Below are positions 11,068 through 16,234 of a DNA stretch of 55,202 nt, piece after piece. The position numbers and the translations under genes are program-made. This DNA comes from a bacterium (GTDB lineage: Bacteria > Patescibacteriota > Minisyncoccia > Minisyncoccales > GCA-002788555). The notes under the pieces were generated by a model. The model was not told the DNA's origin. It saw only the letters and a program-made list of their open reading frames with translations, and ran no database searches. The stretch lies in the NCBI GenBank assembly GCA_021158595.1, contig JAGGUF010000072.1, forward strand, positions 1 through 55,202, in the 5' to 3' direction. The number at the start of each line of letters is the position of its first letter. Positions within the stretch are counted from its first letter, which is position 1.

Positions 11068-11979
11068 CTAATACTTATTAAGATACCTTTGGGTAGCGAA
11101 AAAACTGGAGATTAAACCGAGTAAAATTCCACCTCCCAACTGAATCAAAAGGAGCATTAGAACATTCTCCTCAAAGAAATTTCCTAATCCCAACTCTCCA
11201 AAAATCCCTAAATTGCCAGGAGAAAGGGCATTATCAATACCATAAAATAATAGAAAAGAAAGGATCCCAGCAAAAAGTCCAACCAAAATCCCTTGAATTA
11301 GAAAAGGACCTCGGACAAACCAGTTAGTGGCTCCAATCAACTTCATAATTGCAATCTCCTTTCTTCTAGAATAAATTGCCAATCTTATTGTATTAAAAGT
11401 AACTACAAAAGCAATAAAAATAAGAATGGAACTTATAATCAATCCGCCTGTCTTTATATTATCTGAGATTGAGAAAAGACGGTTAATAATTAACTGGTTT
11501 TGTCTATAATTTACCTTCTCAATGAAGTCCTTGTACTCTCCCTTTTCTAAGAAATTGGCTAATTTCTCATAAGCAGAGGAACTATCTGCTCTAATATTTA
11601 AAGAGGCTGGCAATGGATTTTTCCCTATCAGTTGTAGACTCTCAATTATTGAAGGATTATCTTTATGGGCCTTTTTAAAATTCTCAAGTGCCTCTTCTTT
11701 TGAGATGTACTCTACCTCTTTCACTTCTGGAAAATTTTCTATCTTCTTTTTAATCTTGGATATATCTTCTTCCTCTACATTCTCTTTAAAATATACACTT
11801 ATATCAGCCTTTTCTTGAAGGGTAGCCACTAAATTCTCACTCAATTTTTGTAAAACCAAGGTTCCCCCCACTAAGGTGAGAGCGATAAACATAATAAAAA
11901 TAGTGCCCAGGGAAACACCAATATTCCTTGATATCTCCTGCCATCCAAATTTAAAAACTCGAAAAAAATTAACAAACAT
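11068..11979 (-). CDS. ftsX: Cell division permease FtsX
   Basis: 303 aa with the topology TM - large periplasmic loop - 3 TM. Lies immediately downstream of ftsE. Confidence 0.8.
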   Translation of the reverse strand: MFVNFFRVFKFGWQEISRNIGVSLGTIFIMFIALTLVGGTLVLQKLSENLVATLQEKADISVYFKENVEEEDISKIKKKIENFPEVKEVEYISKEEALENFKKAHKDNPSIIESLQLIGKNPLPASLNIRADSSSAYEKLANFLEKGEYKDFIEKVNYRQNQLIINRLFSISDNIKTGGLIISSILIFIAFVVTFNTIRLAIYSRRKEIAIMKLIGATNWFVRGPFLIQGILVGLFAGILSFLLFYGIDNALSPGNLGIFGELGLGNFFEENVLMLLLIQLGGGILLGLISSFFATQRYLNKY

Positions 11980-11984
11980 AGATT

Positions 11985-12665
11985 TTATAAATAGTATCTC
12001 CCTTCCTTATCATCTCTTATTATCCTCCCCCTTTCTAAAACTACTACCCTCTTTCTAATTGTATTTACTATATCTCGATTATGGGTGGCTAAAACCACTG
12101 CTGTTCCTAACTGATTGATTTTTAAAAACAATTTTACTATCTCTTTTGTAGTAAAGATATCAAGATTTCCTGTAGGCTCATCAGCAAGTAGAACCTTTGG
12201 CTGACCCACAATTGCTCTTGCCAAAGCCACCCTTTGCTGTTCTCCTCCTGAGAGTTGATCAGGAAAGTTATTTGCCTTATCTGAAATTCCTACCAACTCC
12301 AAAGCCTGAGCCACAATTCTTCTGATTTCATTATCACTCTTTCCCAAAACCTCAAGGGCAAAGGCTACATTCTCATAAACTGTTTTTTGATCAAGAAGTT
12401 TATAATCCTGATAAACCATTCCAATCTTTCTCCGATGATATGGAAGGTAACTGGGACTCATTTTGCCCACATTAAGATTTTCAAAAAAAATATTTCCCTT
12501 GGTAGGTTTTTCATATCCCAAAATGAGACGGAGAAGGGTTGATTTTCCTGCTCCGGACCTTCCCAGAATAGATACAAACTCTCCTGAAGAGATTCCTAAA
12601 CTTATATCTGATAAGGCGATACAGTTTTTCGGATAAACCTTTGTCACATTATCGAAATAAATCAT
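11985..12665 (-). CDS. ftsE: Cell division ATP-binding protein FtsE
   Basis: Walker A GRSGAGKST, ABC signature LSGGEQQR, Walker B LLADEPT. Start moved to MIYFDNVTKVY (12665), which aligns with the usual FtsE N-terminus; the track ORF extends to 12689. Confidence 0.85.
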   Translation of the reverse strand: MIYFDNVTKVYPKNCIALSDISLGISSGEFVSILGRSGAGKSTLLRLILGYEKPTKGNIFFENLNVGKMSPSYLPYHRRKIGMVYQDYKLLDQKTVYENVAFALEVLGKSDNEIRRIVAQALELVGISDKANNFPDQLSGGEQQRVALARAIVGQPKVLLADEPTGNLDIFTTKEIVKLFLKINQLGTAVVLATHNRDIVNTIRKRVVVLERGRIIRDDKEGRYYL

Positions 12666-12696
12666 ATTGAGTTTTAATAAGAAATGCACTAATTCC

Positions 12697-13416
12697 CTAT
12701 TTTACAAATCTGTCCAGATCGCCCTCCAAAACCTTTTCCAAATTGGAGGTTTTAATATTTCTTCTATGATCTCTTACCATTTGATAGGGATGAAAAATAT
12801 AGGATCTGATCTGATTACCCCATTCAGCAATAGGAATAGTTCCCAGTTGGCTTTTAATCTTTTTTTCCTTCTCTTGCTGTTGTCTCTGAAGAAGTTTTGC
12901 CTGAAGAATTCTAAGAGCCTTTTTCTTATTCTCACCCTGAAGTCTTTCTGATTGACAAGAAACAGTAATACCCGTAGGAAGATGGGTAAGGCGAACCTTA
13001 CTCTCTCGACGATTAACATACTGACCTCCGGGACCTGAGGCTCTTAGGGTTTCAATTTTTAAATCTTCTTCTTTTATTTTCACCTTATCCTCTTTTATAT
13101 CTGGCAAAACCTCTACCAAGGCAAAACTGGTATGTCTCAGTCTTTTGGCTGAAAATGGTGAAATTCGAACCAATCTATGAACTCCATTCTCTCCTTTTAA
13201 AAGGCCGAATGCTCCCTTTCCCTTCACCTCCATTGTTATTGACTTTATTCCTCCCTCGCCATTGACCCTTGAAATCTCTTTTACCTTAAAATTCTTCTTT
13301 TGAAAGTATCTTTTATACATCCGCAGAAGGATTGACACCCAGTCCTCAGCATCCTTTCCTCCAGTACCAGCATAAATTGAGAAAATGGCATTTCCTTCAT
13401 CGTACTCACTTTTCAT
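12697..13416 (-). CDS. prfB: Peptide chain release factor 2 lacking the N-terminal domain 1
   Basis: SPF tripeptide (RISPFSAKRLRHTSF) and GGQ (RASGPGGQYVNRRES). MKSEYDEGNAIFSIYAGTGGKDAEDW aligns with E. coli RF2 from about residue 117. The ORF residues upstream of this Met overlap the tRNA-Thr gene. Confidence 0.8.
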   Translation of the reverse strand: MKSEYDEGNAIFSIYAGTGGKDAEDWVSILLRMYKRYFQKKNFKVKEISRVNGEGGIKSITMEVKGKGAFGLLKGENGVHRLVRISPFSAKRLRHTSFALVEVLPDIKEDKVKIKEEDLKIETLRASGPGGQYVNRRESKVRLTHLPTGITVSCQSERLQGENKKKALRILQAKLLQRQQQEKEKKIKSQLGTIPIAEWGNQIRSYIFHPYQMVRDHRRNIKTSNLEKVLEGDLDRFVK

Positions 13417-13458
13417 ACTTCTTCTTTTTATCAAAAAAAATAAGGTTTTGCAACCAGA

Positions 13459-13530
13459 AGCCGAGGAGAGGACTCGAACCTCCAACCTACGGTTTACGAT
13501 ACCGCTGCTCTACCATTGAGCTACCTCGGC
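13459..13530 (-). tRNA. tRNA-Thr (anticodon CGU)
   Basis: Minus-strand cloverleaf: acceptor GCCGAGG/CCTCGGC, D arm GCTC/GAGC, anticodon arm GCGGT-ATCGTAA-ACCGT, T arm GGAGG-TTCGAGT-CCTCT. Confidence 0.9.
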
Positions 13531-13538
13531 CTGAAACT

Positions 13539-14903
13539 CTATAATTGCACTTTCTGGCCATATTCTGGCACTTCTGCCTCTAATCCCAAATGATCTTTTA
13601 TCAATTGGGATAAACTTTCAGATGCCTTTTCTTCTCCCTGAACCACAAAAACTCTTTTCACCGTATGCTCATTTTTAATCAGGGCACTACTTTTTATATG
13701 ATAAAGCCAGCGGAAGAGAGCATTTCTGTCAGCATGAGCGGAATAACCCTCAATTGATTTTATCTGGGCTCGGACCGGTATCTTTTCTCCAAAGATTTCA
13801 ATTTCTTTTGCTCCATCCTGAATTTTTCTACCTCTTGTTCCTTCGGCTTGATAGGACACAAAAAGCAGACAATTTTTAGGATCAGGAAGATATCTCCTTT
13901 CATGATAAAGAATCCTTCCACTCGTAGACATTCCTGAGCCTGCAATAATAATTTTGGCTCCAGAAATAGCCTCTATTCTTTTTGACTGCTCAATTGTCTT
14001 TGTAAATACAAGTCGAGGAAACTCAAAAATTTCATCTCCAGATCTTAAGATATAAGAAGCCTCTTTGTTATAATACCTTTTATACTTCTTATAAATAGGA
14101 ATGGAGTCAATTGCCAAGGGACTATCAAGAAAAATGGAAACCTTAGGAATACGATGATTTTCTACTAACTCATTAAACTCATATAAAAGTTCCTGAGTTC
14201 TTTCTAAAGCAAAAGAAGGAATCATTAAAACCCCTCCTCTTCCTATTACCTCTTCTATTGTATCCTCAAGTAAATCTTTTCTTTTAAGAAGATCAGGATG
14301 GTTTCTATCACCATATGTAGACTCTATCAAGACATAATCCCCTGAAGAAGGAAATTCAGTCTGACGAAGTAAGGGAGTAGGCGAATTTCCAAGATCTCCA
14401 GAAAAAATAATTTTCTTTCCTTCAACAAAGACCTCTACAATGGCTGAGCCCAAAATATGCCCAGCATCAAGGAGTTTAAAAGATAAATCAGAGAAAACCA
14501 AGCGGTTAGGAATTTTTGTTCTCTTATGATACTCTACGGGTCTGAAAAGTCTAAAGGTTCTTTTCAGGTCTTTCCTTGAAAAAAGGGTTTCTTTTTGAAT
14601 GTTTAGTTCATCCTCAAGCATCAGTTTTGCTAAATCAAGGGTAGCCGGAGTAGCAAAAATGGGACCGGAAAATCCTTCTTTGACCAACCGGGGCAAACGA
14701 CCAATATGATCAATATGACTATGGGTGATTATTACAGCATCAATCTCCTTCGGATCATAAGGGAAAGGTTGAAAATTCTTCTTCACAATCTCTTCTTTTC
14801 CCTGAAAAAGACCACAATCAATTAAAATTTTATTGTTTGAGGTCTCTAAAAGATAGTTTGCCCCGGTAACAAATTTTGTTCCTCCAAAGAAAGATAAAAA
14901 CAT
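13539..14903 (-). CDS. MBL-fold beta-CASP nuclease (CPSF/Ysh1-like RNA-metabolising hydrolase)
   Basis: 454 aa; HxHxDH (ITHSHIDHIG), beta-CASP-length insert, C-terminal GYSAHAD motif. Confidence 0.75.
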   Translation of the reverse strand: MFLSFFGGTKFVTGANYLLETSNNKILIDCGLFQGKEEIVKKNFQPFPYDPKEIDAVIITHSHIDHIGRLPRLVKEGFSGPIFATPATLDLAKLMLEDELNIQKETLFSRKDLKRTFRLFRPVEYHKRTKIPNRLVFSDLSFKLLDAGHILGSAIVEVFVEGKKIIFSGDLGNSPTPLLRQTEFPSSGDYVLIESTYGDRNHPDLLKRKDLLEDTIEEVIGRGGVLMIPSFALERTQELLYEFNELVENHRIPKVSIFLDSPLAIDSIPIYKKYKRYYNKEASYILRSGDEIFEFPRLVFTKTIEQSKRIEAISGAKIIIAGSGMSTSGRILYHERRYLPDPKNCLLFVSYQAEGTRGRKIQDGAKEIEIFGEKIPVRAQIKSIEGYSAHADRNALFRWLYHIKSSALIKNEHTVKRVFVVQGEEKASESLSQLIKDHLGLEAEVPEYGQKVQL

Positions 14904-15298: not shown

Positions 15299-16234
15299 TT
15301 ATTCATTTTTTAAATAAAAATCAAGTGTTTTTTGATACCTTTCTATAATCTTTTTTTCTGGAGAATCTGGATGAAGTTCAATCAATCTATCCTCTAAAAT
15401 CACTCTTCCATTTTTTACTCCATAAGGATAATTCTTCTCCTTTCTTCTTATTTGAATCTCCTTTAGTTTTTTCTCTACCCAGTCTCCAAACCTTCCAGAT
15501 AAAATTTTCTCTAAAAACTCTGCCAATCCTGACTTCTTTTCTATTCTAAATGGAGCCCTAAAACTCTTTCTCCAAAATAAAAGATACTTTCTCATCCAAT
15601 CCTGTTGTTCTCTAAATCTCTCAAAAACCCTTGATCGGTTAATTACTGGACGAAGATTTAGATAGGTATAAGCATTATAAATACTCGGAAAACGAATCTT
15701 TAAAGAATTCTCTGAAATATAATGATTCAAACATATCTTACCGGCTATTTTTTCAACTGTTCGTTTCTCCCCTATTATCTCAAGCAAAAAGGTTAAAAAA
15801 AATCTTACAGTAAAAATCCTGTAATCTCTGGTAACAATTAAAAGATCAATATCAGAGTTTTCATTTGAATTTGAAATAGCAAGAGAACCGGAAACAAAAA
15901 CTCCCTTTAAAAAAGGAGTGAGGTTTATAATCTTTAAGATCTTCTTTAACTTTTGCCAATTCTTTTTGGAAATCCTTTTCCTTCTTTCTCTTTCTCTGAC
16001 CAAGTCTTCTTTTCCTTTAAGAAAGTAAAATCCTCTCTTATTTTCGATAATTTTTTTAAAAAGAAGGTCTCTTAGACTCTTCTTAACCTCTCTTTCAAGA
16101 AACCTTATATCACCAGTATTTTCTAAACCTGTGATCTTCGGAAGATGATATAAAATTTCTTTTTCTTTTAATGGATAAGAAAAGAGATCAAAATAGACAA
16201 TTGTCTTTAAAATACCTTTTTCTATCTCATTCAT
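15299..16234 (-). CDS. Nucleotidyltransferase-domain protein (Pol-beta superfamily)
   Basis: GSLAISNSNENSDIDLLIV minimal NTase motif; 311 aa. ATGA overlap with the upstream ORF. Confidence 0.6.
   Translation of the reverse strand: MNEIEKGILKTIVYFDLFSYPLKEKEILYHLPKITGLENTGDIRFLEREVKKSLRDLLFKKIIENKRGFYFLKGKEDLVRERERRKRISKKNWQKLKKILKIINLTPFLKGVFVSGSLAISNSNENSDIDLLIVTRDYRIFTVRFFLTFLLEIIGEKRTVEKIAGKICLNHYISENSLKIRFPSIYNAYTYLNLRPVINRSRVFERFREQQDWMRKYLLFWRKSFRAPFRIEKKSGLAEFLEKILSGRFGDWVEKKLKEIQIRRKEKNYPYGVKNGRVILEDRLIELHPDSPEKKIIERYQKTLDFYLKNE

Follow-up and report, generated by a model that had tools for sequence, protein, structure and literature searches.

Class I release factors (RFs) make contact with RF3 and with the stalk region around L11 through their domain 1. 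To our knowledge, this domain is present in essentially all bacteria studied, and its role beyond the contacts with RF3 and the L11 stalk is unsettled. The RF2 gene, prfB, typically, though not universally, contains a programmed +1 frameshift at CTT TGA. In the laboratory, RF1 and RF2 of Escherichia coli have been truncated to domains 2 to 4. According to the account given in PMC1586002, such engineered deletions of domain 1 (Mora et al. 2003, Mol Microbiol 50:1467) kept codon-specific release, and nothing but the interaction with RF3 was lost, RF3 no longer being stimulated; a reviewer quoted in PMC1586002 adds that these truncations work in vivo only with slow growth. PrfH (RFH; TIGR03072) is a class I RF homolog that naturally has no domain 1. 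It retains the GGQ motif, and its decoding motif is altered; an RtcB-like partner gene is invariably found upstream of it, and normal RF1 and RF2 occur beside it. Full-text searches of the literature outside subscription journals yielded no description of an RF1 or RF2 that naturally lacks domain 1.

Analysis of the window (the whole stretch of 55,202 nucleotides under study), which comes from a bacterium of the Patescibacteria/Parcubacteria type with a tiny genome, revealed a prfB gene for a protein of 239 aa counted from its ATG (Table 1). The stop-to-stop frame comprises 270 aa, and its upstream part crosses a tRNA-Thr(CGU) gene, as an earlier reading of the DNA without database searches (the sequence-only reading) had recognized. 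The first Met assigned there, at 13416, was retained, and the gene does begin shortly after the tRNA; the tRNA coordinates of 13459-13530 and the gap of 43 nt were replaced by 13457-13531 and a measured 40 nt. A TTG codon at 13485 was rejected as the prfB start because it lies within the tRNA and the starts of homologs give it no support. Downstream of prfB, the true start of ftsE is likely the ATG near position 12665. Beyond the tRNA, the gene for a protein of the MBL-fold/beta-CASP type ends at 13539 and leaves no space for domain 1 or for the short upstream frame of a frameshifted prfB (ORF0), which agrees with the previous statement that a different gene there leaves no room for a missing piece or a frameshift site. 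Reading of the stretch from the tRNA to the ATG likewise revealed neither ORF0 nor a CTT-TGA shift site.

Table 1. Features of the prfB locus in the window
Feature	Position	Strand	Basis or remark
prfB, RF2 without domain 1	12697..13416	-	239 aa and TAG stop; domains 2, 3 and 4 only
SPF tripeptide (residues 86-88), RF2-type "anticodon" for UGA/UAA	13153..13161	-	sequence reading
GGQ catalytic motif (residues 130-132)	13021..13029	-	sequence reading
tRNA-Thr(CGU), directly upstream of prfB	13457..13531	-	tRNA search
Spacer between tRNA and ATG, 40 nt	13417..13456	-	alignment with 94%-identical relative
MBL-fold/beta-CASP (RNase J-like) gene, 454 aa, upstream bound of the locus	13539..14903	-	Pfam families of the ortholog in L033
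ftsE (ABC ATPase), directly downstream of prfB	11985..12689	-	ORF reading, ortholog synteny
ftsX, downstream of ftsE	11068..11979	-	ORF reading, ortholog synteny

Alignment of the 40-nt spacer with that of a 94%-identical relative revealed that TTGCAAA and TTTTTTTTGATAAA are kept. A scan with consensus promoters called nothing in the spacer, and the idea that it may act as a promoter with a very short leader is speculation based on these letters. Of 93 related loci, 56 carry a tRNA-Thr(CGU) gene directly ahead of prfB and in the same orientation, irrespective of whether RF2 is full-length or short. Thus, this tRNA gene is an ancestral neighbor of prfB in this group, and the conserved linkage suggests co-transcription or shared signals.

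The deduced protein was compared with Pfam families, solved structures and a structural model. The Pfam family PCRF was matched only at profile positions 94-194 of 194, which represent its C-terminal half, and the RF-1 (GGQ) domain was complete. In a phmmer search against the PDB, residues 3-238 aligned with residues 121-357 of E. coli RF2 and with residues 106-336 of Thermus thermophilus RF2, at 42 to 48% identity to the solved RF2s. Since the alignment to the E. coli protein starts only at residue 121, Met1 corresponds to approximately residue 119, rather than 117 as estimated before. The protein therefore lacks domain 1, its helical N-terminal part (about 115 residues; the first half of PCRF), and the earlier description was right on this point. 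The AlphaFold2 model (mean pLDDT, 80.7; pTM, 0.77) superposed on free RF2 of T. thermophilus (2ihr) and of E. coli (1gqe) with a TM score of 0.86 over approximately 237 to 244 columns, in agreement with the fold of domains 2 to 4. The SPF and GGQ motifs that had been noticed at first sight were both found again, and the HTSF and switch-loop residues of canonical RF2 are present as well. At the tip of helix alpha5, the short RF2 carries Asp (GGKDA), whereas the model RF2s carry Glu (GGTEA); Asp at this position also occurs in the full-length RF2 of the same family.

A protein composed of domains 2 to 4 might be a specialized rescue or quality-control factor derived from RF2, of the PrfH or ArfB type, instead of a general UGA/UAA terminator. 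The architecture of PrfH, which likewise consists of these domains without domain 1 (PMC1586002), speaks for this interpretation, as does the score of 345.2 bits against the NCBIfam prfB model (TIGR00020), which is below the equivalog cut-off of 370. This shortfall results from about 110 N-terminal profile positions that are left unmatched. Nevertheless, prfB was the top profile (positions 110-349 of 353), followed by prfA with 229.5 bits, PrfH with 108.8 bits (cut-off, 166.65) and ArfB (NF006718) with 41.4 bits (cut-off, 100; residues 110-144 matched only), so that the profile comparison proposed in the sequence-only reading gave RF2 as the best family and no reassignment to PrfH. In contrast to the ArfB type, which combines a GGQ domain with a basic tail, the short RF2 retains decoding domains 2 and 4, and its SPF motif is canonical and not the altered motif of PrfH. 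No RtcB-like gene is present upstream; the neighbors are tRNA-Thr, the MBL/beta-CASP gene and ftsEX. The order tRNA-Thr-prfB-ftsE-ftsX is common to the short RF2 and to the full-length members of the family, and the gene nests among full-length prfB orthologs with this synteny, in a clade with the RF2 of a relative (G002) that has kept the frameshift and a shortened domain 1 (95% SH-aLRT). Moreover, PrfH accompanies a normal RF2, whereas the short RF2 replaces it and is the sole RF2-type gene of a genome in which about 21% of the long ORFs stop at TGA. Profile score, synteny, tree and predicted fold indicate that the ORF is RF2 and an ortholog of full-length prfB; a rescue factor, which had been listed among the explanations before, is highly improbable.

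According to another of these explanations, the gene is split, with the coding sequence of domain 1 at another site of the genome, from which the domain would be provided in trans or through unconventional joining. A small gene could indeed have been missed, because the assembly (G000; 652,614 bp; 35.8% G+C) consists of 81 contigs and is 86.8% complete. Within this assembly, however, no match to the N-terminal half of PCRF or prfB was obtained at an E value of 10 or less apart from RF1, and tblastn with domain-1 peptides of family members recovered only the N terminus of RF1 itself at an E value of 0.01 or less. The sister genomes with a short RF2, which are 87 to 97% complete, gave just two RF hits and no stand-alone domain 1, and the intermediate forms in the family (described below) point to gradual erosion and not to a split; we regard a split gene as just as improbable as a rescue factor. 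Least probable of all, with only a trace of likelihood, is an error of assembly or annotation, or a gene that suffered a chance deletion and is now decaying. The source is a fragmented metagenome-assembled genome, and the branches of the short forms are slightly longer (median root-to-tip distance, 4.71 versus 4.35, of which the outgroup branch accounts for 3.64 in each), which may be a lineage effect, the full-length family members being long-branched too. On the other hand, the closest homolog (P0001; 94% identical, 242 aa) occurs in three independent assemblies (ENA, JGI and NCBI) with identical synteny (MBL/beta-CASP, tRNA, prfB, ftsE, ftsX and then S18/SSB/S6 on the opposite strand). Comparison with this 94%-identical ortholog yielded a dN of 0.032 and a dS of 0.805 (dN/dS, 0.04), with 74 of 93 substitutions at third codon positions. 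When 27 short RF2 proteins (238 to 257 aa) were aligned, SPF, RHTSF, GGQYVN and the switch-loop pattern W-G-x-Q-x-R-S-Y proved invariant. Short forms with stop codons directly upstream were also found in the sister genomes G003, G005 and G007, and short forms occur in several genera and in at least three separate clades. As judged from these sequence comparisons, prfB is intact and under strong purifying selection.

Neither a second prfB nor a separate domain-1 ORF, neither relaxed constraint nor an assembly deletion, and no affiliation with PrfH was thus found; the sequence-only reading had named each of these as something to look for. The remaining explanation, a naturally minimal RF2, is favored by the gene being the sole RF2, by the dN/dS of 0.04, by the invariant motifs and by the recurrence of the short form in relatives. 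We estimate a probability of roughly 85% that the ORF is the working RF2 of the organism in this naturally minimal form. It resembles the engineered E. coli mutants in having domains 2 to 4 only; those are laboratory truncations, whereas the short RF2 has evolved naturally, is selected and is the only RF2 in the cell.

The genome contains two class I RF genes, namely, the short RF2 gene and, on contig C17, a gene for a full-length RF1 of 350 aa that carries PET and GGQ. No second prfB was found in this 86.8% complete assembly. The stop codons of its 412 ORFs of at least 150 aa are TAA (247), TGA (89; about 21%) and TAG (76). In the window, TGA closes 8 of 40 ORFs of this size, and the next in-frame stop follows 0 to 24 codons later. 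The TGA codons at 1376-1378 and 16231-16233, cited earlier as evidence that UGA is a stop, were identified as minus-strand stops of frames of 151 aa and 523 aa, respectively. A tRNA with a UCA anticodon was not found in the genome. According to these genome searches, the short RF2 is the only candidate for reading UGA in this organism.

Several further observations were made in the same genome. ARAGORN called two tRNA-Pyl(CUA) genes and one tRNA-Stop(UUA) gene (C2, 3454-3530; C25, 214-286 on the minus strand; C35, 4680-4750; loci L036, L037 and L038). These candidate suppressor tRNAs were discarded because they lie in a palindromic repeat and have no Rfam tRNA match. The surrounding element is a repeated G/C-rich palindrome (GGGAGG/CCTCCC) of about 150 nt with the sequence GGGAGGGGGAGGA ... 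TCCTCCCCCTCCC, and the three calls are probably false positives inside a dispersed hairpin repeat. PrmC/HemK, the methyltransferase of the GGQ glutamine (TIGR03534), was not detected above the cut-off in the genome (best match, 28 bits). Ribosomal protein L11 is missing from the assembly as well; loss of L11 was rejected because 37 of 41 relatives have the protein, those with a short RF2 among them, and its absence is probably an assembly gap.

To follow the short form through the family, eight genomes were searched. The RF2 genes of seven of them, including that of the window, were read directly; the eighth (G001) contained RF2 fragments only. G004 encodes a full-length RF2 via the +1 frameshift, with ORF0 MVELKKEKIENIQQEIRFLAESL ending in CTT TGA A. 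In G002 and G006, the frameshift is kept (ORF0 ends in ...LQDHL CTT TGA A and ...LLGDCL CTT TGA C, respectively), and domain 1 is shortened to approximately 83 to 87 residues ahead of AGxGG. In the genome of the window (G000), G003, G005 and G007, ORF0, the shift site and domain 1 are all lacking; the ATG in these four genomes is located 15 to 20 residues before AGTGG, and stop codons are present immediately upstream. The distance from the tRNA to AGxGG amounts to approximately 440 to 460 nt in the full-length genes versus approximately 90 to 190 nt in the short ones. This shrinkage indicates that the deletion took the segment between the fixed tRNA and domain 2, including the frameshift site. 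RF1 is full-length in the window's family, and RF2 is the short factor. Thus, the family displays a graded series from full-length RF2 with the frameshift, through a shortened domain 1 with the frameshift, to RF2 with neither. The classical autoregulation of RF2 by frameshifting was discarded together with domain 1, since without ORF0 and the CTT-TGA site RF2 synthesis is no longer autoregulated by the efficiency of UGA termination.

A census of RF2 genes was compiled from 80 related loci, with names such as Nealsonbacteria, Minisyncoccales, Portnoybacteria and Paceibacterota, together with additional loci. With duplicates and cases at contig edges removed, 88 RF2 genes were left. They comprised 71 full-length, 7 shortened and 10 domain-1-less forms, where G002 is counted in the full-length bin because the script overestimated its ORF0, although direct reading classified it as shortened. 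All 71 full-length RF2 genes use the +1 frameshift, mostly at CTT TGA. In L081, ORF0 ends in ...KDCF, with TTT TGA replacing CTT TGA. In L040 and L089, for which the frameshift assignments were corrected by eye, it ends in ...EDCL, and the Leu codon preceding the stop is not CTT. A quick IQ-TREE analysis of the region comprising domains 2 to 4, with RF1 as the root, requires at least three independent complete losses of domain 1 among the 88 related RF2 genes. These losses are located in the family of the window (95% SH-aLRT), in a Portnoybacteria-like clade (97%) and in L061, which is paired with a shortened form (97%).

The distribution in the class was determined in an even sample of 71 genomes with at least 85% completeness. 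RF2 was scored as short if the match started at prfB profile position 93 or later, and RF1 was scored as short if the RF1-type paralog started at profile position 84 or later. A short RF2 was found in 13 of the 71 genomes and a short RF1 in approximately 29. The survey of related genomes suggested in the sequence-only reading therefore revealed the same truncation in sister genomes and across the class; that reading had seen a truncation in a single gene correctly and had missed its class-wide spread, the loss in RF1 and the frameshift of the relatives. In many genomes of the order and class (e.g., L025 to L030), RF1, recognizable by its PxT motif, is without domain 1 while RF2 is full-length. 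Translation of six short RF1 genes of the order gave frames of 246 to 265 aa that start just ahead of IIEIRAGxGG. These domain-1-less RF1 proteins share the deletion boundary of the short RF2, which is located immediately ahead of the AGxGG strand in domain 2. In contrast to the short RF2, they are paralogs for UAA/UAG, and no frameshift site disappeared with their domain 1, as RF1 does not have one. Outside this class, RF2 of the phylum is full-length in nearly all cases, and a short RF1 is rare.

In the order sample, a short RF2 was combined with a full-length RF1 and vice versa. The rule that one full-length RF is always kept was nevertheless contradicted by the class sample. In G047, G061 and G070, the profile search placed both RFs in open frames of 242 to 278 aa, which are too short for domain 1. 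G053, G082, G089 and G091 also showed a late start in both profiles, some of their open frames being longer. Judged by these profile matches, several genomes of the class appear to have two short RFs. Two genomes of the order deviated in another way. G025 (100% complete) gave no RF1-type hit; its matches were to RF2 only and fell into two frames (profile positions 10-65 and 95-352). G010 (92% complete) gave one full-length hit, which was RF1-like (232 bits to the prfB model), and a second hit of 68 residues. These two genomes may have lost a release factor or may represent misses of the first-look filter.

Canonical RF2 also differs from the short RF2 in that the latter belongs to a lineage without RF3. 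The search for prfC (RF3) gave no match above the cut-off in any of approximately 180 Patescibacteria (41 genomes from the order, 71 from the class and 71 from the phylum); EF-G proteins were the best matches of the prfC profile, at about 200 bits. The controls, Bacillus subtilis and Thermus, were also without RF3. Both of these bacteria keep domain 1. The proposal that the loss of RF3 explains the deletion was rejected because RF3 is missing phylum-wide, yet other classes keep a full-length RF2, so that the loss can only be permissive and cannot by itself account for a class-specific pattern. Since domain 1 is also retained without RF3 in B. subtilis and Thermus, loss of RF3 alone is insufficient, which implies that domain 1 has another role that is dispensable or replaced here. 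Most likely, RF3 was lost early in the Patescibacteria, which would have removed the best-documented task of domain 1, and the remaining role of the domain then became dispensable in this class, so that deletions would have been tolerated repeatedly.

For the short RF2 itself, we infer catalytic activity, codon specificity and RF3-independent turnover. Translation would begin at an ordinary ATG 40 nt past tRNA-Thr. The product, which is predicted to keep GGQ domain 3 and the decoding superdomain formed by domains 2 and 4 with SPF, and to be without helical domain 1, would enter the A site of the ribosome when UGA or UAA is there. The stop codon would be recognized by SPF, the tip of helix alpha5 and the His and Thr residues of HTSF. 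The factor would then open, and GGQ in the peptidyl-transferase center would hydrolyze the peptidyl-tRNA in the same manner as in canonical RF2. Finally, it would depart from the ribosome spontaneously, as expected in a lineage without RF3, the recycling action of which works through domain 1.

What is new here is the series within one family in which the frameshift and the domain are lost jointly, a hint of genomes with two short RFs, and the absence of RF3 throughout the phylum with the deletion concentrated in one class. The genes represent natural, selected domain-1-less RF2s, together with orthologs from the same family that show intermediate steps. They provide a matched natural trio (full, shortened, none) for testing the contributions of domain 1 and of the frameshift, and are of moderate interest for researchers of translation termination. 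Annotation is also concerned, because pipelines label these genes "PCRF domain-containing protein"; RF2 can then seem absent, and a reassignment of the stop codon can be wrongly inferred. The repeated, class-specific loss of domain 1 from RF2, from RF1 and sometimes from both could also mean that termination has been rewired in this class, which we consider unlikely, if less so than the alternative origins of the gene weighed above. In that case, the factor-binding region (L11, L7/L12 stalk) might have changed, or an unrecognized factor might do the recruitment or release job of domain 1, and the short RFs would be the hallmark of a separate and simpler termination cycle in bacteria. The short RF2 shows how far the termination machinery has been reduced in ultra-small bacteria.
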